Assembly (NCBI GenBank): GCA_000146465.1
Contig: CP001945.1
DNA length: 64,000 bases
Strand: one strand, 5' to 3'
The notes below the pieces were generated by a model. The model was not told the origin of the DNA. It did not search any database and worked only from the letters and a program-made list of their open reading frames with translations. The position numbers and the translations under genes are program-made. This document shows positions 4,596 through 58,021 of this stretch, piece after piece (positions within the stretch are counted from its first letter, which is position 1; every line of letters begins with the position of its first letter).

Positions 4596-5330
4596 ATGGA
4601 AAAATCAAATGCGAGCTTTAATTTCGACAAAATACCGAAGTTCATAATGAAGCTCTATAAGGCCACCAATAACGAGAAGTACAAAGGAATCTCCTGGACA
4701 CCCGATGGGCTTAAGATTCACATATATGACCGAGACGTGTTTGTTAAGGAGACACTTCCCCTCATATCGAAGACAAGGGAGTTTGGAACGTTTGTCCGGA
4801 TGTTGAACAGTTACGGGTTTGTTAAGTCCAAGGACATTGAAGAGGAGGACATATATTACAATAAGAACTTCAGAAAGGGAAGAGAGGACCTGCTGGGGTT
4901 TGATGATACACTCCGAATGATTAAAAGGAAGAAGTCCAATGATATTCGAATGAGAATTGGAGATGGATCTTTGAAGGACGTAGTGGAGTATTTATACGTA
5001 CAAAACCAGGAGTTATATACAGAATTGTCTGCTTGCAAGGAGCGCATAGAGAGGCAGGAGAGAGCCCTCAATGGTCTTATAGAAATTCTTTCAAGGGTCT
5101 TTAGAACAAATTCCCAGGACTTCGGGGCTCGGATTAAACCCAATGCTCATAATCTCCACGACGAAATGGACCTTTTTCTTGGAGAGCTTTCAGGGCCTCT
5201 CAAAGAAGGGTATGAGCCGCCTTCTCCTGATGTGCAAGGGAAAGGCATCCCTGAACTGTCCTTTAAGCCAGGAGAAAATTTTCAAGTAGATTCCGACTCT
5301 AAGAACGACAGGTATGATGCTTTCTTCTAG
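4596..5330 (+). CDS. Heat-shock-factor-type DNA-binding-domain transcription factor.
   Basis: The N-terminus FIMKLYKATNNEKYKGISWTPDGLKIHIYDRDVFVKETLPLISKTREFGTFVRMLNSYGFVKS...IYYNKNFRKGREDLL matches the HSF winged-helix consensus (FL.KL...W...G.sF.v.d...F...vLP.yFKh.nfsSFVRQLN.YGF.KV....F.hp.F.RGq..LL). A coiled-coil region follows. Confidence 0.8.
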   Translation: MEKSNASFNFDKIPKFIMKLYKATNNEKYKGISWTPDGLKIHIYDRDVFVKETLPLISKTREFGTFVRMLNSYGFVKSKDIEEEDIYYNKNFRKGREDLLGFDDTLRMIKRKKSNDIRMRIGDGSLKDVVEYLYVQNQELYTELSACKERIERQERALNGLIEILSRVFRTNSQDFGARIKPNAHNLHDEMDLFLGELSGPLKEGYEPPSPDVQGKGIPELSFKPGENFQVDSDSKNDRYDAFF

Positions 5331-7779: not shown

Positions 7780-8055
7780 ATGCAGGCTCATATGCATAAA
7801 AACCTCAACCCCAAAGTTTTTATGGGGATTGAAAGAAGAAGGTTCTATCAGAAACTCACGGTGTTTATAGTCCTTATGTTTGTATCGCCGATAGCAGTCC
7901 ATGTGATTGGAAAATGGTTTGAATCCAATCCTCCGGCGATCTCGTTTATATCATTATTCTTAGTCTTGGGATCGATGGGGGCAATATGCAAGCTCGTGAT
8001 CGACAGGGAGCAAGAGAAAAGGAATAGAAGAGAAAGAAAAATTAAAGTCAAATAA
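7780..8055 (+). CDS. Possible small two-TM membrane protein of about 91 aa.
   Basis: The tail of ORF 7657..8055 extends beyond the stop of the preceding gene and encodes two hydrophobic helices followed by a basic tail (REQEKRNRRERKIKVK). There is no homology evidence, so it could be a chance ORF. Confidence 0.2.
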   Translation: MQAHMHKNLNPKVFMGIERRRFYQKLTVFIVLMFVSPIAVHVIGKWFESNPPAISFISLFLVLGSMGAICKLVIDREQEKRNRRERKIKVK

Positions 8056-8949: not shown

Positions 8950-9035
8950 CTTTAATAAAACGTGTCACATTTCTGGCAGAAATGTCTTCAAATCGGGCTA
9001 GGTTTTTTTGTAAATTTTTCTTTGGGGTATGCAGC

Positions 9036-10106
9036 ATGGAGATTAGCCACATTGTTTTTCTGGATAATGGGGATACAAGCAAAGTTAACCAACAGGTGGT
9101 GTGTGGTAAGTATCTTGTATTCAACTCTCCTTGGGATGATTCTCAAGCAGACACTAAAATAAAAAGAGATGGAAGAACATTGGACATAGAGTCTAAAGAG
9201 ATAATCCTCAAGGTTGCCAGTGGAAAAATTGTTTACTTGGAGACTGTTTATCCTGTAAGTACCGGTGTTGAGTTTGTGGAGCTTATATCCCCACCCAATC
9301 CATATGATTTCTTTCTCCTGAGAAAGCACTTTCTTTCCAAGCTAACAGGAGTATGTCCCAGACCAATGGAGAAGGAAGTAACATATCCAAAGAAGAGGAG
9401 AATAGGATGTTTTATCATGCCGGTAATTCTGTGTATACTAAGAAAGCCTTTGGAGTATTTCCTTGTCAATATTCCTAGTCGCATCGTCGACTATATAATG
9501 AACTCCTCAGTCGAGGAAAAGCAAATCATAACGATAAAGACAACCTTGGGCGCCTATGTAAAATTCTTCACCACCATCCAGAGTCTATTTTTGAGGTTGG
9601 GGTTTCCAGTAGTATTTATTGATGGAATTTATATGATTCCAACAGCAGCTTGTTTATCAATATTTTCTCGCCTAGGTCTCTTCTTAGCAAAGCTGCTGGT
9701 AGAGTCCATTCATCTACTAAACAACAGTAGCTACAATCCCTTAAAAAAGCGGAGAGACTCAGTTGTCCTTAACACAGACCAAATATTCATGTCTGTACTG
9801 ATTTTCTCATTTCTTCTTTTGATCACATTCAATGTTGTGCATTTCTATGTTCTTTATATCTTTATGAACCTATGTCTAATAGCCTTGACAACTTTTAGCG
9901 ATTTTATAGATTTCGTGCTAATAGACATCTCGAAATTCCATACATACACTCTTTCAACAGATCACACCAAACACCGCCAAATCAAGCTCAAATACACCAA
10001 GGTCTCTATCTACCACAAAATCAAATTTGCAATTCAAGCAAGTCTTCTCTCTTCAAAGACGCTCAAAGACACTGTTCTAGCTAAATATCTGCTTGAAATA
10101 AAGTAG
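9036..10106 (+). CDS. Hypothetical multi-pass membrane protein.
   Basis: ORF 8982..10106 has several hydrophobic helices in its C-terminal half and no recognised domain. Start is taken at the Met MEISHIV. Confidence 0.4.
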   Translation: MEISHIVFLDNGDTSKVNQQVVCGKYLVFNSPWDDSQADTKIKRDGRTLDIESKEIILKVASGKIVYLETVYPVSTGVEFVELISPPNPYDFFLLRKHFLSKLTGVCPRPMEKEVTYPKKRRIGCFIMPVILCILRKPLEYFLVNIPSRIVDYIMNSSVEEKQIITIKTTLGAYVKFFTTIQSLFLRLGFPVVFIDGIYMIPTAACLSIFSRLGLFLAKLLVESIHLLNNSSYNPLKKRRDSVVLNTDQIFMSVLIFSFLLLITFNVVHFYVLYIFMNLCLIALTTFSDFIDFVLIDISKFHTYTLSTDHTKHRQIKLKYTKVSIYHKIKFAIQASLLSSKTLKDTVLAKYLLEIK

Positions 10107-12142: not shown

Positions 12143-12901
12143 TTAGAAACCATTCCACTCCTCGGTATTCTCTGCAGTTATTCCACCCAAAATCTCTTCT
12201 TTCCCAACGTTAAGAACCGTATTTGTTGTTTCAAGGAGCTGCTCTTCAATAAGCTGCTCAAGCTCGACACTGTCTCTAAAGAGGAAAAGCTCGACTTCCT
12301 TCATGTCTCGAGCAAGTTCCGCCCCGGTCTTCATGTAACTGATTAGTCTGGATAAGATAAAAAACCCGGCAGCAATAGCAGATGGCGACCTGTTGTTCAT
12401 GGGGATGGCAATGTCTACTCCCACCAGAGAGTTGTCTGCATTGACAAATGCAATGGTTGGAAGATTGCAGTATTGTGATTCCAAAATCGCCTGCTTATCG
12501 GCATATGTATCGGAAACAATCAGAATCCTCGGGTCATACATTCTTCTAACTTCCGAGTTTGTAAACGATCCGGGAATAAACCTTCCGGTTATTGGTGTTG
12601 CACCGACAGCCTCGCAGAACTTGACAACGGGCTTTCTTCCGAATGTCTTTGTAGATACCACGGCAATGCTAGAGGGATGCTTTATTCCACAAAAGGCCCG
12701 AGCTGCAATGATGAGTTTCTCCCACATTGCATTGATGTCAATAATACTAATCTTATCATGAGGCCTTGTGCCGTAAAGGTATCTAGCAAAGTTCTTGTTT
12801 GCGGAGGTTCCTCCAAGATGTGCCTGGCTAAGTATAAGCAACTTAACAAACTCCTCTGGAATTTTGATACTATCCGAGATTCTGGTGTTATCTTGCGGCA
12901 T
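12143..12901 (-). CDS. RPSA: 40S ribosomal protein SA (uS2, p40).
   Basis: The sequence LLILSQAHLGGTSANKNFARYLYG...DGIyIIDInamWEKLIIAARAF...ATPITGRFIPGSFTN...PTIAFVNADNSLVGVDIAIPMNN matches RPSA ([23 protein letters not shown]...ATPIAGRFTPGTFTN...[23 protein letters not shown]). The probable start is the second Met MPQDN; the ORF track extends to 12934. An AAAAATTT..ACCC motif lies between the two Mets. Confidence 0.9.
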   Translation of the reverse strand: MPQDNTRISDSIKIPEEFVKLLILSQAHLGGTSANKNFARYLYGTRPHDKISIIDINAMWEKLIIAARAFCGIKHPSSIAVVSTKTFGRKPVVKFCEAVGATPITGRFIPGSFTNSEVRRMYDPRILIVSDTYADKQAILESQYCNLPTIAFVNADNSLVGVDIAIPMNNRSPSAIAAGFFILSRLISYMKTGAELARDMKEVELFLFRDSVELEQLIEEQLLETTNTVLNVGKEEILGGITAENTEEWNGF

Positions 12902-13091
12902 TTCAAGGGTACAAATTTTTTCAGGATTATGCATTTAGCACGGAGCAAAGTAGAAACAGAAGCCCAGGGATTATTAGGAAGGAATTCTCTTTTCATGTGA
13001 TGTATTCCAACCTTCTTTTACAAAAAATTCCTGTAAGATATTGGGGCCAGATTGCAGGTGTTGAAATCAATTCTTTTAGGACGAATTTATA

Positions 13092-13206
13092 GCCCCCGTA
13101 GCTCAGTCGGTTAGAGCGTGGTACTTATATGCTGGAAAGCTGTGCAATACTTGGTTTATACTGCTAAGATATGCCAAGGCCGCGGGTTCGAGTCCCGCTG
13201 GGGGCA
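13092..13206 (+). tRNA. tRNA-Ile (anticodon UAU) containing a 41-nt intron at the canonical 37/38 position, 13130..13170.
   Basis: Manual fold as follows. The acceptor stem GCCCCCG pairs with TGGGGGC, with one G-U pair. The D-arm is GCTC-AGTCGGTTA-GAGC. The anticodon stem TGGTA pairs with TGCCA. The anticodon loop is CT-TAT-A, interrupted by the intron. The T-arm is GCGGG-TTCGAGT-CCCGC (B-box GGTTCGAGTCC). The discriminator is A and no CCA is encoded. Confidence 0.8.
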
Positions 13207-13258: not shown

Positions 13259-14110
13259 CTAGAAGTAGATTCCTACCTTCCTGAACTCCAACAGAAGAGC
13301 AAGGAAGTCGTCAATGCTCATCTTGGCAGCCCGAGCCCCGTCAAGCTCTGCCCTGGACAAAACCTTTTCAAACACTTCCTCTGGCGTGGTGTTTTCAAAG
13401 CTAGGGTTTCCTTTTACCTTGCTGACCAAAGACGAATTCCTAAAGTTGGCCTTGAGAGTCTTGTTTTTTCTAAGAAAGCATATCTTCAGAAATCTGTCAA
13501 ACTCCTCGAGGTCTATTGGGGGCCTGGGAATCCGAGGCTCTATCCTTACAAAACTCGACTCGATCTTTGGTGGAGGCACAAAGCTGTTCTTGGACACCTT
13601 TAGAACATGATCCACCTGTGCAAGCATCTGTGCTCCAACAGATAGCCTACAGTACTCTGAACTTCCAGGCTTTGCCACCAGCCTGTCTGAAAACTCCCTC
13701 TGGAACATTATGAATGCACATTTGAAGTCATATTTTAGAAGCTTGAACATAAACGGGCTGCTGATTTGATATGGCAAGTTACTGATGCAAAGATCAAAAT
13801 GGGGGAAGTCATGCTTCAATGCATCCCCTACAAACAACTGGAACTTCTGAGCCATTCCAGGAGTGCCGTTAACTTTCTTTGCCAGCTCAGCTGCCAGCCT
13901 AGGGTCAATTTCATAGCATATCACCTTCTTTGCCTTCTGAAGTAACTTCATTGTCAAGTTTCCCGTCCCTCCCCCTATTTCTAGCACCGTGTCCGTTGGC
14001 TTAATCTTTGCCCTCTCTATTATTGTGTCGATTACTCCCATGTTCTTCAGTATATGCTGTCCATGCTGTTTATTGAACTTTGGATTTACCATTTGAACAC
14101 ACCCCACCAT
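13259..14110 (-). CDS. DIM1: 18S rRNA (adenine-N6,N6)-dimethyltransferase Dim1 (KsgA family).
   Basis: The sequence FNKQHGQHILKN...LEIGGGTGNLTMKLL...ISNLPYQISSP...FQREFSDRL...YCRLS matches Dim1 (FNTDLGQHILKN...LEVGPGTGNLT...ISNTPYQISSP...FQREFALRL..YCRLS). Start is taken at an internal Met so the CDS does not overlap the upstream gene; the ORF track extends to 14158. Confidence 0.85.
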   Translation of the reverse strand: MVGCVQMVNPKFNKQHGQHILKNMGVIDTIIERAKIKPTDTVLEIGGGTGNLTMKLLQKAKKVICYEIDPRLAAELAKKVNGTPGMAQKFQLFVGDALKHDFPHFDLCISNLPYQISSPFMFKLLKYDFKCAFIMFQREFSDRLVAKPGSSEYCRLSVGAQMLAQVDHVLKVSKNSFVPPPKIESSFVRIEPRIPRPPIDLEEFDRFLKICFLRKNKTLKANFRNSSLVSKVKGNPSFENTTPEEVFEKVLSRAELDGARAAKMSIDDFLALLLEFRKVGIYF

Positions 14111-14138
14111 GCATAAAAATTTAACATTGTAGATGGAT

Positions 14139-15040: not shown

Positions 15041-16708
15041 TCAACTAAACAATACTCCGTCTGAGAAATGATACACCTTGTCGAACTTATTTAACAGGTC
15101 CGAATTCCGCATTATCATTATAATAGTTTTGTCCGAGAGGTTCTTCATAATCATGTCAACTAATCTATTCTCAGACTCTTTATCCATGTGAGAAGTCACC
15201 TGGTCAAATATATATATAGATGCATCTTTGACAACTGTCCTCATCATACTGACCTTTTGTTTCTGTCCCCCACTCAGTCTGTTACCTCCATTTCCAACAA
15301 GGGTTTGATACCCTCCATCAAGGTTTTTAAATACCCCATCCAGCTCATACCTTTTACAGAATTCCACAATCTCCTCATCGCTCAAACGTGAGTTCCCATC
15401 CCTTATGTTGCCAATGACAGATTTGTTAAACAGCTGCGATTCTTGAGGCGAGTACGCTATCATCTTACGGAGCCCCTCTTTGCTCAAACCATTGAGCTCC
15501 ATACCGTCGATTTGAATGCTCCCAGAATAGTCAAGAAACCCAAGCAGAGCTCTAGCAAAAGAAGTCTTCCCCCCTCCGTTGTCTCCAGATATACCTATCT
15601 TCTCCCCCTTTCTTATGCACATGCTCACATTCCTTATCAGCTTCTTGCCTTCTATCGATATCTCCAACCCCTCAATTTTTATCTCTCTTTCTAAGTTCTC
15701 CTTGTAGTACCCGATTTCCTGTATGTCCTCCCTACTCGGCTCGCTTCTATTCTGTGCTATGTTTGTAAGATTCAATAGAATCATTCCAAAGCTGTTGCTT
15801 ATGTCGACACAATACATTCGAAGCTGGTTACTTAGTGAGAATATCAAGGTATAGTCTCGAAAGCCAATATTCTTCGTATCTCCATTTGAAAATCGAACAG
15901 TCATTATAAACATTGCTATGACAAACATATTCTCTCCAATAAAGTTTCCAACCTGCAACCAGCTCCAATATATCTTGGCATATTTTGTTTGGCCCTTCAT
16001 ACATTTGTACAGCTCGTTTGCCTCTAGCTCTTCGTTATTGTATGATTTTATAATGTCATAATTCAATATGCTGTTGTAGATTTTCCTATTCGACAGGTCA
16101 ATCTCCTTGTTCATCTTCAGTCTGATGATGTTTCGATAGTGGTTTAAGACGATGACACATACTCCATAGACAATCACAACTCCTGCCATGAGCAACCCAT
16201 AGCGATTCTCAATCCCACTTCGGATTTTAATCACCGTTATCAGTACACAGAACAGACTCATTATAAAGCACTTTATAATCGATTCCAAGACATCTCGTAG
16301 AGACAAGACCTTCCTATTCATGAATGAAATCATGTCTCCCACCCCTATCTTTTTGAAATCTAAAAACGACATGGATATATGCTCCCTATACAGATCTATA
16401 ATGTAGTCTCTACATATAGTTTCTATGTAGCTAGACATCACAAACAGAGAAACAAATCCAAACACATAGGAAGAAAGAGCTACTGCTAAATATACCTTGA
16501 TTTTTCCGTTCACAGCCTCTGTCTCATCAGCCTTCTCCTGGATTTCATTCAGAATTTCTGTAATGAATATTTCTCCATATCCTGCTACTAGTAATATTGC
16601 AATCACAGGAAGAATAATGACCCTAACAACCGGAGATCCAAGAATATATTTGAAAAGGATATCCCTTACTGCCGAGAGTTTGCTGGATCTCTTCATAACC
16701 TCTTTCAT
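15041..16708 (-). CDS. ABC half-transporter, ABCB-type, with a transmembrane domain followed by a nucleotide-binding domain.
   Basis: An N-terminal six-helix transmembrane region is followed by Walker A (GDNGGGKTS), the ABC signature (LSGGQKQKV) and Walker B (IYIFDQVTSHMD). Confidence 0.85.
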   Translation of the reverse strand: MKEVMKRSSKLSAVRDILFKYILGSPVVRVIILPVIAILLVAGYGEIFITEILNEIQEKADETEAVNGKIKVYLAVALSSYVFGFVSLFVMSSYIETICRDYIIDLYREHISMSFLDFKKIGVGDMISFMNRKVLSLRDVLESIIKCFIMSLFCVLITVIKIRSGIENRYGLLMAGVVIVYGVCVIVLNHYRNIIRLKMNKEIDLSNRKIYNSILNYDIIKSYNNEELEANELYKCMKGQTKYAKIYWSWLQVGNFIGENMFVIAMFIMTVRFSNGDTKNIGFRDYTLIFSLSNQLRMYCVDISNSFGMILLNLTNIAQNRSEPSREDIQEIGYYKENLEREIKIEGLEISIEGKKLIRNVSMCIRKGEKIGISGDNGGGKTSFARALLGFLDYSGSIQIDGMELNGLSKEGLRKMIAYSPQESQLFNKSVIGNIRDGNSRLSDEEIVEFCKRYELDGVFKNLDGGYQTLVGNGGNRLSGGQKQKVSMMRTVVKDASIYIFDQVTSHMDKESENRLVDMIMKNLSDKTIIMIMRNSDLLNKFDKVYHFSDGVLFS

Positions 16709-16903
16709 TTCTGGGGTAGAATTTTCCTCTCCTTTTCGTCTATTGAGTCTCTAGTAGCTTGGGAGGTCTAAAATCCCATTCGAAATGGATTATTGGGTGA
16801 GCTTCACAAACGCAATGTTTGGATTGGCAGAAAAGGGGTGAAGGGCAGGCTTGAACTTGGAGATGGCCTGTAGTGGTGTTTACAGGATTTTCTGCCCCTT
16901 GGA

Positions 16904-17274
16904 ATGACAGTCGTGCAATACATCCTACTCAGGAGTGACTTGAGCTTTTCAAGAGGCGCAGTAATTGCCCAGGCCTGCCATTCAAGCGTCTATTCCATCG
17001 AAAAATACAGAAACCACCCAGACACAATAGAGTATCTAGAAAACATAGAATCTATGGCAAAGATAATTCTGAAGGTAAGTGGATGGATTAATTTTAGATT
17101 AAGGAAAAGGATGTGGAAGAGATAGCCGGATATCTTACTTCGAAAGGCATAGACCATACTGTTTGGATTGAAGATCCGGAAAGAATACCAACATGCATAT
17201 CTCTCAGGCCGTACAAAAGAAGCCATATACCTGATGTTGTTGATTATTTAGCAAGGTTTGGGCTATTCCGTTGA
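16904..17274 (+). CDS. PTRHD1-like peptidyl-tRNA hydrolase-fold protein, encoded in two exons. Exon 1 is 16904..17074, a 23-nt intron spans 17075..17097, and exon 2 is 17098..17274.
   Basis: Exon 1 encodes MTVVQYILLRSDLSFSRGAVIAQACHSSV...YLENIESMAKIILK. Exon 2 encodes IKEKDVEEIAGYLTSKGIDHTVWIEDPERIPTCISLRPYKRSHIPDVVDYLARFGLFR. Together they align along the whole length with PTRHD1 (LVQYVVVRSDL..GAVVAQCCHA...YLRELDSMHKVVLEA...[38 protein letters not shown]). The intron is GTAAGTGGATGGATTAATTTTAG. Without splicing, the ORF stops after 73 aa inside the intron-extended frame. Confidence 0.7.
17075..17097 (+). other. Spliceosomal micro-intron of 23 nt, GTAAGT...TTAATTTTAG.
   Basis: A canonical GTAAGT 5' splice site sits directly after codon 57. 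A TTAAT branch-like motif and the TTTTAG 3' splice site follow. Removal restores the frame into the conserved C-terminal half of the PTRHD1 homologue. Confidence 0.65.
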
Positions 17275-21005: not shown

Positions 21006-21740
21006 CTATACAAATTTCTGTATCCTCTCCCTCTTCTTTCTTCCAACCACCTCGACAAAGCTATCTTCTACTGTCTTTTCTCCTTGTGACGCCTCCACAC
21101 CCTTCCAAACTCTTCTGGGCCCCCGAACAATACACCTTCTGGGCTCTGGGAGTATCCTAGTCCTCTCAATTCCCACCCTCACCAGCTTTGCAATTTCTTC
21201 CCATAATTTTTTAATGATTTCGCTCTGGAGGTTTAACATCTCATCGATAGATTCGTAGACATTGCACATGTGTTTGTACCACTTTTGAACATCTATATCC
21301 CCCCTTTCCCATGCATCAGGACATAAAAAACCTCCCGTGTATTCATATCCAAAAATATATGAGAAATACATCTTATCTTCGTCGAAATCTTCTCCCTTCC
21401 GGAAGTATCTATGGAAGTAGATGTGTGAGTTCACGTACTCTCTTTTCTGGAATCCAAAAGTAAATAAAATATCTTCGAGATCTCTTCTTTTCATCTTCAC
21501 CATCTTAGAACCGTCCAAGGCATCTGGAACTCCTACTTTTCCGCACACTTCAAATGCTCGTCCATCTTCAACCCATTTCAGCACCTTGTTCCTGTCGTTC
21601 TCGAGTTTCCCATGGATAAATCTTACTACAGATAGATAATAGATGTACTTTTCTCTCCTCCCATCAATATCCTTCCTCATCCAAAAATCCTCAGAAGGGA
21701 TATCAATGTCTATCTTTTCTCCTGAAAACAGAAAATCCAT
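21006..21740 (-). CDS. Divergent HSF-type DNA-binding-domain protein.
   Basis: The segments KVLKWVEDGRAFEVCGK...RRDLEDILFTFGFQKRE...IYFHRYFRKGEDF fit the HSF pattern (W...G..F.v......F....Fvrq.N.yGFrK.....F.hp.F.RG.e) with weaker conservation than the other copies. Confidence 0.5.
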   Translation of the reverse strand: MDFLFSGEKIDIDIPSEDFWMRKDIDGRREKYIYYLSVVRFIHGKLENDRNKVLKWVEDGRAFEVCGKVGVPDALDGSKMVKMKRRDLEDILFTFGFQKREYVNSHIYFHRYFRKGEDFDEDKMYFSYIFGYEYTGGFLCPDAWERGDIDVQKWYKHMCNVYESIDEMLNLQSEIIKKLWEEIAKLVRVGIERTRILPEPRRCIVRGPRRVWKGVEASQGEKTVEDSFVEVVGRKKRERIQKFV

Positions 21741-21755
21741 GTAGCATTTGTAGAT

Positions 21756-22505
21756 TTATTGAAAGTCTTGGACAATATCATTGAACTTATGCCTTTTCAC
21801 CTTCAGGTTCACAGTTATTCCCGAAGTCTTCTTGACTTTCTCCTTCTCCTTTTTCTTCGGAGGGGACTTTTGGGGAACCTTGGGAACCTCCAAATCTCCA
21901 ACCTCATCGAGGAATCCAAACGAGCAGTTTGCATTGTCTTGGAAATATCTCTTTGCCCATTCTAACATCGATTCCTCAAACTCAATCTTGTTACTTGGAT
22001 CGTAATTTATGCTTTTAAATTCATGATACGGCTTCAATGTCTTCATGTGCGAGCACAAAGAAAACAGAGAATCCCGAAGTTTTGAAATCTTTTTCTCGTT
22101 TTCTCTAAGTCTTCCAATCATTTGAGGAACCTCGCTCATCATGATGCGGATGTTCTCATTCATCGAATCGATCTCTTCCTTAGGTATCTCCCTGTCGCTT
22201 TTATGGTTCACCTTGTATATCATACCAAGGAAATTCTTCTTCTGCCTTTGGAAAAATTTGTTATAATACTTCAGTCCAGATCTTCCAATCTTCTTGAATC
22301 CATAGCTCTCCAGAAGCCTTTTAAATTCTTCTATTCCAGTACAAAATCCAAAAAACGGCCCGGTAATAAATCTAAACATCCCGGGGTTCCTTATAACAAT
22401 GCATCGTCCGCTTTTACTCCATTCAATTGCTGTGAAACGAGTACTGTCCACCATCTCATATAGTATCTCTATTTCCTTTTCTACGGACTTTGATTTCCCA
22501 ACCAT
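21756..22505 (-). CDS. HSF-type DNA-binding-domain protein.
   Basis: The sequence AIEWSKSGRCIVIRNPGMFRFITGPFFGFCTGIEEFKRLLESYGFKKI...KYYNKFFQRQKKNFLGMI corresponds to the HSF motifs (WS..G.sF.V.d...F...vLp..F....f.SFvRQLN.YGF.KV ... F.hp.F.rGq..LL.nI). Confidence 0.65.
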   Translation of the reverse strand: MVGKSKSVEKEIEILYEMVDSTRFTAIEWSKSGRCIVIRNPGMFRFITGPFFGFCTGIEEFKRLLESYGFKKIGRSGLKYYNKFFQRQKKNFLGMIYKVNHKSDREIPKEEIDSMNENIRIMMSEVPQMIGRLRENEKKISKLRDSLFSLCSHMKTLKPYHEFKSINYDPSNKIEFEESMLEWAKRYFQDNANCSFGFLDEVGDLEVPKVPQKSPPKKKEKEKVKKTSGITVNLKVKRHKFNDIVQDFQ

Positions 22506-23758: not shown

Positions 23759-24247
23759 ATGTCCATAGAGAACAAGCCATTCAGTTTTACATATATTATC
23801 CGTAACTTTCATAGAATAATTTCCAAGGGAAAGGATGGAGCAGCATGGAGTCCTTGCGGGAGAGAAGTTATAATTACAGACTCTGCCAAGTTCCAACGGT
23901 TCCTCGAGAAATTGTCAAGAAAAAAAAAAGGCTCGAAGCTAGACTACCTGAAAAGAAATGGCTTTATTCGGGGAAAGACAATGAACCAGAAATCGGTTTT
24001 CTCCCATCCATGGTTTGTAAGAGGGCAGAAAGATCTCCTGAAGAACTTCACGCTCAAAAACTCCTTCTGTTGGTCACAGGGGATACAGATGGGAAGCCAT
24101 GGAGAACCTGATGACCCACTGGACTCATTGAAGCTAGGGTTGTTTGATTTGGGAAGAACATTGTTCAATCTCCGGAACAGTTGTTTAGATTTGAATTCGC
24201 ATATTCAGCTTCTTTTTAATATGGCTAAGTCTAAATCATGTGAGTAA
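23759..24247 (+). CDS. HSF-type DNA-binding-domain protein, short form of 162 aa.
   Basis: The sequence AAWSPCGREVIITDSAKFQRFLEKL...LDYLKRNGFIRGK...VFSHPWFVRGQKDLLKNFTLKN matches HSF ([25 protein letters not shown]...FVRQLNMYGFRKV...EFQHPCFLRGQEQLLENIKRK). Confidence 0.65.
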   Translation: MSIENKPFSFTYIIRNFHRIISKGKDGAAWSPCGREVIITDSAKFQRFLEKLSRKKKGSKLDYLKRNGFIRGKTMNQKSVFSHPWFVRGQKDLLKNFTLKNSFCWSQGIQMGSHGEPDDPLDSLKLGLFDLGRTLFNLRNSCLDLNSHIQLLFNMAKSKSCE

Positions 24248-24290
24248 CTGGAACAGTGAGTTTTGACGATGGTGGGGGATTTAACCCTTT

Positions 24291-24956
24291 GTGAAGAGTG
24301 AAGGGATGAAAAGCAGAGAGAGGGTTTTGGAGGACATAAGAAACAGATTGAGGACACTGCTGTCGAGCAGGAAGTGCATAGGCATGGAAAGCATAAGAGA
24401 TGACTTTTTTTTTATGATAACAAATCCTAAAATCTTCGACGAGCTAGTGATGGAACCGGTCTTTTCTTGCAATAAATATTGGGAGTTTAAGAGACTAATG
24501 TATCTTTGTGGATATTCGCATATCAATAGATGTATGTTCATGAAGGGAGGAGAAAAGGAAGGCCGAGCCCCTAGTATACTTCTTAAGAGGCCTGAAGAAA
24601 AGGATCTTTTGCGTTTTGAAGAAGCCTTGGAAGATCTGCGGAAAAAGTATTTAGATCTTGAAGAGATTCTGGACGATGTATGGGACAGACTGGATAATAT
24701 AGATGGTGCTCTTGAAAGATCCATGGGAGCAATACGGGATGTATTTAACAAAGGAGCAGAAGTCTCAGGAGTTGATCTCCAAGAAATAAATGGACTTGTT
24801 GATTCACTAATGAAATATGATGAGTCGGAGTCCATGGATACATTCAGCGAGGGAGCAACTCCGGAAGAATCCGATATAGAAGCATTTTCGTCCTCCTCAG
24901 AGGAGGGCCACACAAAGGTGTTGGAAAATAAAGAAAAGAAGATCAGTTTCTTTTAG
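24291..24956 (+). CDS. Hypothetical protein with a possible degenerate HSF-type domain followed by a coiled coil.
   Basis: The segments KYWEFKRLMYLCGYSHI..CMFMKGGEKE weakly resemble the HSF helix-3 and wing region. A heptad-repeat segment (LRFEEALEDLRKKYLDLEEILDDVWDRLDNIDGALE) is followed by an acidic, serine-rich tail. Confidence 0.4.
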   Translation: MKSEGMKSRERVLEDIRNRLRTLLSSRKCIGMESIRDDFFFMITNPKIFDELVMEPVFSCNKYWEFKRLMYLCGYSHINRCMFMKGGEKEGRAPSILLKRPEEKDLLRFEEALEDLRKKYLDLEEILDDVWDRLDNIDGALERSMGAIRDVFNKGAEVSGVDLQEINGLVDSLMKYDESESMDTFSEGATPEESDIEAFSSSSEEGHTKVLENKEKKISFF

Positions 24957-25958: not shown

Positions 25959-26019
25959 GGGCTTAAGATCGAATCTTCACAAATCAAAAAGCATTCCATT
26001 AAAATTTGTTTATCTACCC

Positions 26020-26277
26020 ATGGAGTTCAAGGCTTCTTTGAGACTGCCATGCGAGAGCCCTGAGATTGTTGCAACAGCTATACGATGCGAGGATAGCGAT
26101 TGCGACATGCCGGAGGAAACATATTCTCATGAAGATGGGTACTTAGTTGTGAATGTTTCTGCAGCCAAGATAAAAGATCTTTCCAAATCACTCAACTCGT
26201 TGTTGTCAAGGTTCAAGCTGTCTGTCGAAAGCATAGAGATGTGCAAAAAGCTTGGAGGCAGGAAGGAAGTGGGGTAG
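26020..26277 (+). CDS. PCC1: KEOPS/EKC complex subunit Pcc1 (LAGE3 family).
   Basis: From the internal Met, the sequence MEFKASLRLPCESPEIVATAIRC...DGYLVVNVSAAKIKDLSKSLNSLLSRFKLSVESIEMCKKL matches the Pcc1 family pattern (slripFps.r.Ae.A..sL.pD.e......v.l.f.A.d.R.LR.S.nsfLd.l.L....m..F). ORF 25942..26277 carries a spurious N-terminal extension. Confidence 0.55.
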   Translation: MEFKASLRLPCESPEIVATAIRCEDSDCDMPEETYSHEDGYLVVNVSAAKIKDLSKSLNSLLSRFKLSVESIEMCKKLGGRKEVG

Positions 26278-32533: not shown

Positions 32534-33058
32534 TCAGTTTGAACTTTCTTTATCATAAAGATCCAGGGTTATAGCTGCCAGCTCCATTACCTTCTTCTTG
32601 TACTCCTTTTCGTTTTCCCTCAGATGCTGTGCTGCATCCACGTTTGCTGGGCTTTCGCAGTTAGGAGATGTAAGAAGCGTTATTATGCTGAGTATCACGC
32701 TTTCAGGTGTTCTTACCGGAAGCCATCTATCTCCCAGAGATTCGTATCCATACTCATCCTCCCCGGGATTGTGCAATATAGATATGCAAACATTTCCGTT
32801 TTCATCTATATTTGGATGCCACATCTTCGAACAGAAACGAAAACTCGGCGGTGAATCCGGATAGTCGAGGGGGAAGAGCATCCGTCCTTTGAAGATCCCA
32901 TTTTCGTATGGCGTCATCCTAGGCCCGAAGATTAGAATTTCCCACGTGTATATGTCTCCATCGACAAGGCCGACACTGTAATACTCGTTGGGGTTTTCTT
33001 GGATTCTCTTGTAGTCTTTTAAAAGAAGTCCTCTTGAAAAGCCTCCCTTCTTTCCCAT
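32534..33058 (-). CDS. Ubiquitin-conjugating enzyme E2, Ubc7/UBE2G-like with an acidic loop insertion.
   Basis: The UBC fold carries HPNIDENGNVCISILH with the active-site Cys, followed by the UBE2G-type insertion PGEDEYGYESLGDRWLPV. The probable start is the Met MGKKGGFS; the ORF track carries a spurious N-terminal extension up to 33196. Confidence 0.85.
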   Translation of the reverse strand: MGKKGGFSRGLLLKDYKRIQENPNEYYSVGLVDGDIYTWEILIFGPRMTPYENGIFKGRMLFPLDYPDSPPSFRFCSKMWHPNIDENGNVCISILHNPGEDEYGYESLGDRWLPVRTPESVILSIITLLTSPNCESPANVDAAQHLRENEKEYKKKVMELAAITLDLYDKESSN

Positions 33059-33241
33059 ATTGTTTTCTTGGGTTTGAAATCTTAATGGTTTATATATAGT
33101 TTCGAATAGGTAGCAGAAAGCCATTTGGCTCGAAGAACAGATGAAACCTGTCGGCCATGCCAGACAGATGTAAACATCCAGATCAACCATCTGCATTGTT
33201 CAAGAGGCTTTGACAAATATTTTCCAAAATTTTCACCCTGA

Positions 33242-33712
33242 ATGGAGGAAGTAAAGAAGCTGAAGGTCTTTCCAAGACAGACAGGCGTGTATCTCAAGCC
33301 ATACGCAGCAGATGGGGAGCAGCCAGAGAGGAGAGTCAGGGCAGAGGTCTGTGGGTTCAAGGCTCCGGAAACTGCTTACACACGGCAGTACATCGATAAG
33401 AAGTGTCCGTTTACAGGTGATATCAATGTCCGAGGAAGGACTTTCAAGGGAATTGTTAAGAAGATGAAGGCTGAGAAAACCATTGTTGTTGTTGTCAACT
33501 ATGTTCATTACAGCAAGAAGTATAAGAGATATTCAAGAAGACACACCAACTTCTCTGTTCACATGTCTCCTTGCTTTGAAGGAATGATTAATGTGGGAGA
33601 CACTGTTATCTGTGGAGAAACCAGGCCTCTTTCCAAGACAAAGTCGTCGGTGGTCTTGGGATATACCAAGAAAGCTACGCCTGGTTCGTTCAAGCTTCTT
33701 GAAAGCATCTAA
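33242..33712 (+). CDS. RPS11: 40S ribosomal protein S11 (uS17).
   Basis: The sequence [63 protein letters not shown] matches RPS11 ([63 protein letters not shown]). The upstream motif CCAAAATTTTCACCC lies 4 nt before the ATG. Confidence 0.9.
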
Positions 33713-43857: not shown

Positions 43858-43943
43858 CAGACATCAGATATGCAGTGTAAAAAACCAAAGATCTAATAAA
43901 ATTTTATCATTAATAAATGCATATGGCTCTGCCATGATGTCTT

Positions 43944-48311: not shown

Positions 48312-48650
48312 TTATTCTTCCTTACCTTCCTCAACATTAATATACTTGAGTTCAAATCCATCTGGCCCTTGTGCAAAAATCTTGATGAAAGCCCTAAGCT
48401 TCTTCATATGTAGAAACCTTGCTATCTGCCACTTTATTCCCCGCTTTGGTATAAATCCTCCTGTGACATTCACTTCAACAATGTTCCCGCTCACCTCGAT
48501 CTGGAGAAGCTTTTCCTTCTTTCCCATGTGGCATTTGATCTTCTGTTGAAGAAATGCCCCCAGGTCCGAAGGAGAGACGAGACTGTCGGATGCCGGCTTT
48601 GTACAGTCAACAGTAAACTTCCTTGTGGTCTTCTCCGATGCCGTTGCCAT
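48312..48650 (-). CDS. RPL22: 60S ribosomal protein L22e.
   Basis: The sequence KFTVDCTKPASDSLVSPSDLGAFLQQKIKC...IEVSGNIVEVN matches RPL22 ([30 protein letters not shown]...[35 protein letters not shown]). An acidic C-terminus is present. The upstream motif CCAAAATTTTTCACCCC lies 9 nt before the ATG. Confidence 0.85.
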   Translation of the reverse strand: MATASEKTTRKFTVDCTKPASDSLVSPSDLGAFLQQKIKCHMGKKEKLLQIEVSGNIVEVNVTGGFIPKRGIKWQIARFLHMKKLRAFIKIFAQGPDGFELKYINVEEGKEE

Positions 48651-48709
48651 TTGTCTTATTGGGGTGAAAAATTTTGGCTCCAGAAGAACACAAAACTGAG
48701 CTTTGGATT

Positions 48710-57233: not shown

Positions 57234-57959
57234 TCATTTGACTATGGTATCCACTATGGCTCTTCTTCGAGCCTCCAAGTCCTGGTCTCCACTGAGGTCA
57301 AACACGCTTTCAATCACAGTCATCTCGACATTGGTCGTTTTCACTCCTGCAACACACATCCAATCATTGATGGCAACCCCTCCCCCAATGCAAGGGCTTC
57401 CTCCATTGACTGTCCCTGCAATCACATTCACCTCGAGAAGCTCACTAAGCTCCTTTTGGCACTCTTGACTCGTGAGGGGATGAACAAGCATTCCTTGGTT
57501 GTTCAATGCACCAAAGGTTCCCACAAGTGGCTCTTGGCCTATATTGTGTCGGTAGACAGGAACCTGTAGAACATCTTTGATAATGTCTTCCGACTCTCCA
57601 TCCAGATCTCCATGTATGATTGCAACATGGTCGTTGCAGAGAACTACATTTCCAAGGGCATTCAGTCTCTCTTCAATCCGCCTCACTACAACATTCTCCG
57701 GCAATGTGTTTCTTATGTGCATAATCTCCTGGTCTGTTATCGTGTGTGGCACAAGTAATCCATGTCTGTTTCCCCTGCATTGCGACCCTACACTTCTAAT
57801 GCTATTGATCGTTGTTTCCACAATCGGGATTGCAACAGTCTCCTGCAGAAACTTGAGTACATTGTTTGACTGACTTCTTCCAACCACACAGTATGTGTTG
57901 GTAAGTGATATGTATGCTCCTATCTCAGAGCTTCCTTCAAAATCTATTCTGTACGACAT
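57234..57959 (-). CDS. TIF6: Eukaryotic translation initiation factor 6 (eIF6).
   Basis: From the internal Met, the sequence [26 protein letters not shown]...[58 protein letters not shown] matches eIF6 (FENSNEIGVFSKLTNTYCLV...[43 protein letters not shown]). An AAAAATT..GGGGCCC motif lies immediately upstream. Confidence 0.9.
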   Translation of the reverse strand: [241 protein letters not shown]

Positions 57960-58021
57960 GGGCCCCTGAGAATTTTTCATTTTCCACTCTCCAGATAACT
58001 TCTTCCAGAGTCTACCTCTTG

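Follow-up and report, generated by a model that had tools for sequence, protein, structure and literature searches.

A short signal directly before the start codon of microsporidian genes is well described. Cornman et al. found a CCC motif with MEME in Nosema ceranae and Encephalitozoon cuniculi, mostly within 15 bp of the start, and TATA[AT]A[AT] was seen to peak near -27 from the ATG in N. ceranae (Cornman et al., 2009; PMC2685015). T. hominis likewise has this CCC motif, together with TATA boxes. In E. cuniculi, RACE gave 5' UTRs shorter than 7 nt, with transcripts beginning past the CCC, at 1-7 nt from the AUG (Peyretaillade et al., 2009; PMC2803860). That study also reported an AAATTT-like signal that adjoins CCC before every E. 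cuniculi ribosomal-protein gene and before the orthologues of these genes in four other genera, for which the authors proposed a TATA-like role shared with A-rich tracts; it noted the intergenic bias of the signal and GGG as an alternative to CCC, and corrected 364 start codons. CCC or GGG was later found next to the mapped transcription starts of non-coding RNAs that are made by different polymerases (Belkorchia et al., 2017; PMC5499648), and MicroAnnot sets translation starts by the CCC/GGG signals, with Encephalitozoon intestinalis as a benchmark genome (MicroAnnot, 2024; PMC10815200). The start signal matters for annotation, a use already established and built into microsporidian annotation pipelines.

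Here we analysed a stretch of 64 kb (the window; all coordinates refer to this stretch), which belongs to E. intestinalis, as its focal proteins are identical to deposited proteins of E. intestinalis ATCC 50506. The gene order is that of E. cuniculi chromosome IV (AL590444.1), E. hellem and Ordospora colligata. The GC content is 41.5%, and once start codons are curated about 91% of the window is coding, with a non-coding fraction of 8.8%. Four genes at 21006-22505 and 23759-24956 lack a counterpart in the syntenic E. hellem locus, and E. cuniculi has the first pair; the four include two HSF-type DNA-binding paralogues (21756-22505 and 23759-24247), and the gene at 4596-5330 brings the number of HSF-domain genes within 20 kb to three.

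A preliminary description of this DNA had drawn attention to an AAAATTT plus CCC motif before ribosomal-protein and translation-factor start codons and had likened it to the AAATTT-like and CCC-like signals of Encephalitozoon. The likeness holds down to orthologous genes: the supplement of the E. cuniculi study lists the same motifs before RPSA (AAAAATTTTGCACCCTTGAA), RPS11 (AAATTTTTCACCCCGAA), RPL22 (AAATTTTTTCACCCCAATAAGCTAAGA) and ECU04_0780, the eIF6 gene (aaaatttctccgatgccc), whose corrected start was validated by BLAST (PMC2803860). The motif is therefore the published start-of-gene signal of Encephalitozoon and other microsporidia, already known, and the present work re-observes it. We give a probability of about 85% to the reading that the sites described below represent, in E. 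intestinalis, the composite core-promoter signal of microsporidia. The additions made here are minor: quantification across the window, footprinting with E. hellem and Ordospora as references, the instances at the Gpi1, Dim1, Pcc1 and ABC transporter genes, and the depletion of AAATTT in coding sequence.

RPS11, RPL22 and RPSA are the only ribosomal-protein genes, by Pfam, among the 54 open reading frames of at least 80 aa in the window, and the strings quoted earlier for these three genes and for eIF6 were all found in the DNA exactly where they had been placed. On the plus strand, the RPS11 composite AAAATTTT-CA-CCC occupies 33226-33238 (AAAATTTT at 33226-33233, CA, CCC at 33236-33238) and is followed by TGA and the ATG at 33242, which opens a coding sequence of 156 aa (uS17, 33242-33712, +; Pfam Ribosomal_S17 and S17_N; identical to ADM11348.1), so that the composite ends 3 nt before the start codon. 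A second AT-palindrome, AAATATTTT at 33215-33223 (+), lies upstream of this composite and is conserved across species, reading AAATATTT in E. hellem and E. cuniculi and AAAATATTTT in O. colligata, about 10 nt upstream of the first. The neighbouring gene on the minus strand encodes an E2 ubiquitin-conjugating enzyme whose conserved start is the fourth ATG, at 33058 (174 aa), not the first at 33196; a reading frame opened at the first ATG would leave no more than 45 nt before the RPS11 ATG, and one public gene call, of 218 aa, seems to extend too far. Its upstream region (33058-33105, -) holds TATATAAA, conserved in four species and about 27 nt upstream of a CCC at -14.

The RPL22 composite AAAATTTTT-CA-CCCC is on the minus strand at 48661-48675 and is conserved in four species; it reads AAAATTTTT (48675-48667), CA, CCCC (48664-48661) and AATAAGACAA, ends 10 nt before the ATG at 48650, and precedes a coding sequence of 112 aa (eL22, 48312-48650, -; Pfam Ribosomal_L22e; ADM11359.1). 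Directly after the CCCC on the same strand stands a conserved AATAAG (48655-48660, -), about 50 nt past the SerRS stop codon; SerRS is read from this strand too, and the hexamer may be a SerRS polyadenylation signal that overlaps the RPL22 leader.

At RPSA the composite AAAAAATTT-GTA-CCC (12907-12921, -), likewise conserved in four species, lies inside the reading frame that begins at the first ATG. The order along the minus strand is ATG#1 at 12934, AAAAAATTT at 12921-12913, GTA, CCC at 12909-12907, TTGAA and ATG#2 at 12901, which is Met12 of the long form and stands 5 nt beyond the end of the composite; from it a protein of 252 aa is read (uS2, 12143-12901, -; Pfam Ribosomal_S2; ADM11329.1). 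The in-frame upstream ATG is present only in E. intestinalis and E. hellem. The conserved block of E. cuniculi and O. colligata has no in-frame upstream ATG, and the upstream ATG of Ordospora is out of frame. All deposited Encephalitozoon RPSA proteins have 252 aa, and no deposited record of the 263-aa form that would follow from the first ATG was found. In the long spacer between Dim1 and RPSA there is also a tRNA gene with an intron (13092-13206, +, 115 nt; Rfam RF00005, 57.2 bits); this intron-bearing gene is detected by Rfam, whereas ARAGORN found no tRNA anywhere in the window.

The eIF6 gene carries a degenerate version, AAAAATT-CTCA-GGGGCCC (57960-57977, -), within a block conserved in E. 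hellem and E. cuniculi. Here ATG#1 is at 57980, AAAAATT at 57977-57971, CTCA follows, GGGGCCC is at 57966-57960, and directly abutting it is ATG#2 at 57959, Met8 of the long form, which opens a coding sequence of 241 aa (57234-57959, -; ADM11363.2). The AT element, AAAAATTC in E. intestinalis and E. hellem, has only two T and lies 8 nt from CCC, and it fails the strict A3+T3+ definition; in E. cuniculi it is AAAATTTC, followed by ...GCCC. The arrangement GGAAAATGAAAA(A/T)TTCTC...GCCC-ATG is kept in the three Encephalitozoon species.

Both internal methionines had been proposed as the true starts, and the comparison of orthologues bears this out. For RPSA, the 252-aa form is the one deposited, and E. 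cuniculi and O. colligata offer no in-frame alternative. For eIF6, ATG#1 is conserved within Encephalitozoon. However, orthologues of microsporidia and of other eukaryotes open with M-[SA]-x-R at the position that corresponds to Met8, and M-S-[YFH]-R-I-D-F-E-G (MAVR.QFEN in fungi and other eukaryotes) stands at position 1 in the orthologues sampled from microsporidia outside the Encephalitozoon-like group, from fungi and from other eukaryotes; the Pfam eIF-6 domain begins at residue 11 of the long form, and the revised GenBank entries ADM11363.2 and CAD25265.2 (E. cuniculi) both have 241 aa. Judged from these sequences, Met12 of RPSA and Met8 of eIF6 are the correct starts, and they are already the curated annotation. 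The spurious N-terminal extensions of RPSA (12902-12934, -) and eIF6 (57960-57980, -) translate into conserved pseudo-peptides, NPEK[IF]CTL[EQ] and MK[NI]S..., because the promoter block is conserved as DNA, and these could mislead homology-based start-codon calling among close relatives.

Some 25-30 nt before the ATG of RPS11, RPSA and RPL22, holding the AnTn element and the CCC, hardly vary among the three Encephalitozoon species (E. intestinalis, E. hellem and E. cuniculi) and can still be recognised in O. colligata, and at eIF6 a block of about 25 nt is shared with E. hellem and E. cuniculi; for the sequence immediately upstream of these blocks no alignment could be obtained. In more distant species the RPS11 elements can still be followed. 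The upstream region of Pancytospora philotis RPS11 (locus L015, 1464-1500) ends in GATAAAATTTTCAAAATTTTGCAGCAAAAATTTGCCCTA-ATG and contains three tandem elements, AAAATTTT, AAAATTTT and AAAAATTT, that is, A4-5T3-4 elements followed by GCCC-TA-ATG in otherwise very GC-rich DNA, and that of Gurleya vavrai ends in AATTTTTTTAACCCTA-ATG. The lengths of the A and T runs drift between species, and the order, A then T, is kept.

For the statistical analysis we used homology-defined starts for 51 genes, taking the first Met column conserved across E. hellem, E. cuniculi and O. colligata, a definition independent of the motif, with the 2,509 other ATG trinucleotides as controls. For several genes the conserved-Met call was overridden by annotated orthologue lengths; the causes were loci cut at their ends (unk400, PRP8 in Ordospora), a misaligned N-terminus (RPL22) and poorly conserved proteins. 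A naive analysis of the first ATG of all 54 open reading frames served as a control free of such overrides. The homology-defined start differs from the first ATG in 13 of the 51 genes, so about one gene in four in the window would be given a false start by the first-ATG rule, and CCC or GGG lies within 15 nt of most of the starts corrected in this way.

The number of copies in the window is lower than chance would give. The strict composite, defined as A3+T3+N0-8(CCC|GGG) and searched on both strands of the 64 kb, falls short of expectation in its CCC form (3 against 9.0±3.2 expected from dinucleotide-preserving shuffles) and also when GGG is admitted (4 against 17.3); plain A3+T3+ behaves in the same way (40 observed on both strands, 105 expected in such shuffles). 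All four strict composites, at RPS11, RPL22, RPSA and Gpi1, end 3-11 nt before a homology-supported ATG. The non-random feature is the placement of the composite, not its total number, and only a positional test is informative.

By position the signal is clear. CCC occurs in the 15 nt before 31 of the 51 starts, compared with 8.5% of control ATGs (p = 5e-20); CCC or GGG is found in -15..-1 of 38 starts and in -25..-1 of 41, which leaves 10 of 51 genes with neither triplet within -25, and at -70..-36 of the 51 starts there is no enrichment of CCC/GGG. GGG alone is barely enriched in -15..-1 (20% against 10%), so the CCC signal is strand-specific. The naive first ATGs give the same picture, with CCC in -15..-1 of 24/54 (9% in controls, p = 1e-11) and in -10..-1 of 20/54 (6%, p = 3e-11). 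Within -25..-1, an AT element (A3+T2+ or AAT3+) with CCC/GGG after it precedes 11 of the 51 starts and 11 of the 2,509 controls (0.4%; p = 4e-14). Motif discovery upstream of the ATGs had been suggested as a check, and unbiased k-mer enrichment at -30..-1 ranks the same elements first: CCC among 3-mers (52 against 14 expected), ACCC among 4-mers (20 against 2.4) and AAATTT among 6-mers (6 against 0.4, p = 3.9e-6), with AAAATTT..CCC placed at ATGs above the controls. The looser CCC examples cited for Rpn8, HSF and HECT are present as described. Two genes outside the test set also carry CCCC within 15 nt of the ATG. One is a conserved gene of 77 aa with no assigned function (7822-8055, +, CCCC at -14), situated between an 800-aa open reading frame and Rpn8 and annotated at the same 77 aa in E. 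cuniculi, E. hellem and O. colligata. The other, in the gap between the ABC transporter and HECT genes, is a second paralogue of the peptidyl-tRNA hydrolase PTH2 (16904-17274, +, CCCC at -9..-6), a non-ribosomal-protein gene with a 23-nt spliceosomal intron (17075-17097, GTAAGT...TTTTAG), whose spliced product of 115 aa has the length of the annotated E. cuniculi orthologue.

The strict composite precedes 3 of 3 ribosomal-protein genes and 1 of 48 other genes (Fisher p = 1.9e-4), an association that rests on a small sample of three genes in one window. In all three, the AnTn tract lies 2-3 nt from CCC, and CCC lies 3, 5 or 10 nt from the ATG. Very tight spacing between AnTn and CCC is characteristic of ribosomal-protein genes, and the AAATTT-like element itself is not limited to ribosomal or translation genes. 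It is found at Gpi1, a non-translation gene (AAATTTTT-CTTT-GGG(G), 9012-9026, +, ending 9 nt before the homology-supported ATG#2 at 9036), at the rRNA dimethylase gene Dim1 (AAATTTTT-N9-GGGG, 14102-14122, -, upstream of the conserved ATG#2 at 14092), at Pcc1 (AAAATTT-N9-CCC, 26001-26019, +, abutting the conserved ATG#2 at 26020) and at the ABC transporter gene (AAAATT-CTA-CCCC, 16713-16725, -, ending 4 nt before the ATG at 16708), and these gene versions are conserved. The idea of a motif common to ribosomal-protein and translation-factor starts stands for the three ribosomal-protein genes; for the translation factor, the eIF6 copy is degenerate in the window but belongs to a conserved block that is listed as the signal of this gene in E. 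cuniculi, and genes without a role in translation carry the element too. We also considered whether the Gpi1 match at 9012-9026 could be a chance string within the first-ATG reading frame; this was rejected, as it precedes a Met conserved across species, the start at 9036.

These observations are also what must be weighed against the idea that the AT strings are by-products of a compact spacer, arising from polyadenylation or other 3'-end signals or from composition, with the ribosomal-protein association due to chance. SerRS precedes RPL22 on the same strand by just 59 nt, with the conserved AATAAG after the RPL22 CCCC, and two intergenic A3+T3+ sites (1093-1099 and 43898-43905) lie between convergent 3' ends, as this idea would have it. 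The neighbour of RPS11, however, is divergent, and over 330 nt, with the tRNA gene among them, separate the RPSA composite from the stop codon of Dim1, so that for these two genes an artefact of polyadenylation signals or spacer is excluded, by gene orientation at RPS11 and by distance at RPSA. Moreover, the composite lies inside the first-ATG reading frame at RPSA, Gpi1 and eIF6 and is thus not confined to spacer DNA, it is conserved as a block where the surrounding spacer diverges, and the ribosomal-protein association (p = 1.9e-4 here) is complete in E. cuniculi (PMC2803860). We regard an origin as spacer by-product as barely credible.

In the composite-promoter reading, which we prefer, the parts of the signal would act as follows. 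The CCC is a sense-strand cytosine triplet, usually ACCC or CCCT and occasionally GGG, placed 3-15 nt before the ATG of most genes, and by extrapolation from E. cuniculi it would mark the start site of the RNA polymerase in E. intestinalis as well. If so, transcripts would have leaders of only a few nucleotides, and translation would start at whichever AUG comes first downstream of CCC. The AnTn palindrome 2-3 nt upstream of CCC would be a class-specific proximal element of ribosomal-protein genes, possibly a substitute for the TATA box, which might bind TBP or another factor and would give these genes strong, coordinated and raised transcription. A looser version, with a spacing of 3-9 nt or a degenerate T-run, may serve some other genes, including eIF6 and Dim1. 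As the spacing between AnTn and CCC is fixed and the distance from CCC to ATG is variable, ranging from 0 to about 20 nt across genes, the pair is suggested to form one start-setting unit after which the first downstream AUG is used.

The same variable distance bears on whether the motif might instead be part of the mRNA leader and act in translation initiation, as a Kozak-like or ribosome-recruiting signal. Its position relative to the AUG and its specificity for the sense strand would suit such a role, and the 10 nt between CCCC and ATG at RPL22 leave room for part of the region to be transcribed. A distance of 0 to about 20 nt is, however, unlike a fixed translational context, the E. cuniculi 5' ends lie downstream of CCC (PMC2803860), and CCC/GGG also precedes the mapped starts of ncRNAs that are never translated (PMC5499648). 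The mapped 5' ends and the occurrence of CCC/GGG before ncRNAs make a role in the translational leader very unlikely.

How the AT tract would work within the composite promoter is a separate matter. Tracts of the A4T4 type are intrinsically bent with a narrow minor groove, and T4A4 is straight; TTTTAAAA is an example of a non-bent AT-rich sequence with a composition equal to that of AAAATTTT. The tract might thus act mainly through DNA structure, by holding the tiny promoter curved or open next to the CCC initiator, and not as a sequence read by a specific protein. In line with this, A3+T2+ is enriched 5-fold at -25..-1, where the reverse order T3+A2+ is not (p = 0.29), being mildly enriched further upstream (p = 0.004 at -35..-1; p = 0.001 at -70..-36). 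Copy number and spacing also vary, from two palindromes at Encephalitozoon RPS11 to three in tandem in Pancytospora, and run lengths drift across species as the A-then-T order persists. The tight 2-3 nt spacing to CCC over long evolutionary distances, on the other hand, fits protein contact at least as well. We think an action mainly through structure improbable, and since it is compatible with the composite promoter and not exclusive of it, it is best kept as a live alternative or complement.

A further feature of the tract is its scarcity in genes. Nine of the 20 A3+T3+ sites fall within the 8.8% of the window that is non-coding, and the 11 in coding sequence compare with 30±5 under shuffling of synonymous codons (z = -3.7), a depletion of about 2.7-fold. 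Among the motifs compared this coding depletion is the strongest: the ratio is 0.65 for T3+A3+, 0.71 for A6/T6 runs and 0.85-0.96 for other AT hexamers. The depletion suggests selection against cryptic, promoter-like sites within genes, as seen in one window with small counts. From here one may speculate that AnTn is an order-specific module dependent on bent structure, so potent in such minimal promoters that it is purged from coding sequence to avoid cryptic initiation, and serving a wider growth regulon that takes in the ribosome-biogenesis genes eIF6 and Dim1; we consider this doubtful. In the literature consulted on the AAATTT/CCC signal we found no description of either a genome-wide counter-selection or such an extension of the regulon.

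The canonical TATA box, bound by TBP, lies near -27 to -30. The AAATTT element resembles it in being AT-rich and upstream of the start site, and differs in that it adjoins CCC, only about 5-15 nt from the presumed start, and lacks a TATA step; a simple TATA-box role is therefore geometrically awkward. Counted from the ATG, the AT element of the focal genes begins at -16 to -25; its distance to CCC is 2-3 nt in the ribosomal-protein genes and 8 nt in eIF6, and none of the four upstream regions has a TATA step or TATA[AT]A[AT] 25-32 nt upstream. The E2 ubiquitin-conjugating enzyme gene offers a contrast, as its conserved TATATAAA, about 27 nt upstream of CCC, has the canonical TATA geometry.

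The metazoan TCT initiator used with TRF2 (PMC8047918) is similar to AAATTT as a dedicated start-proximal element that distinguishes ribosomal-protein genes, but its sequence is unrelated and it spans the start, whereas AAATTT lies upstream of it, so that the two are alike in function only. In a eukaryote almost devoid of intergenic DNA, the signal illustrates how about 20 bp can hold both the choice of start site and class-specific regulation. With the known microsporidian signal (PMC2685015, PMC2803860, PMC10815200) the sites described here share the layout of an A-run, a T-run, 1-3 nt and CCC adjoining the ATG, the gene class and the use for start-codon correction; nothing essential differs, and the window holds the E. 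intestinalis copies of the same loci.
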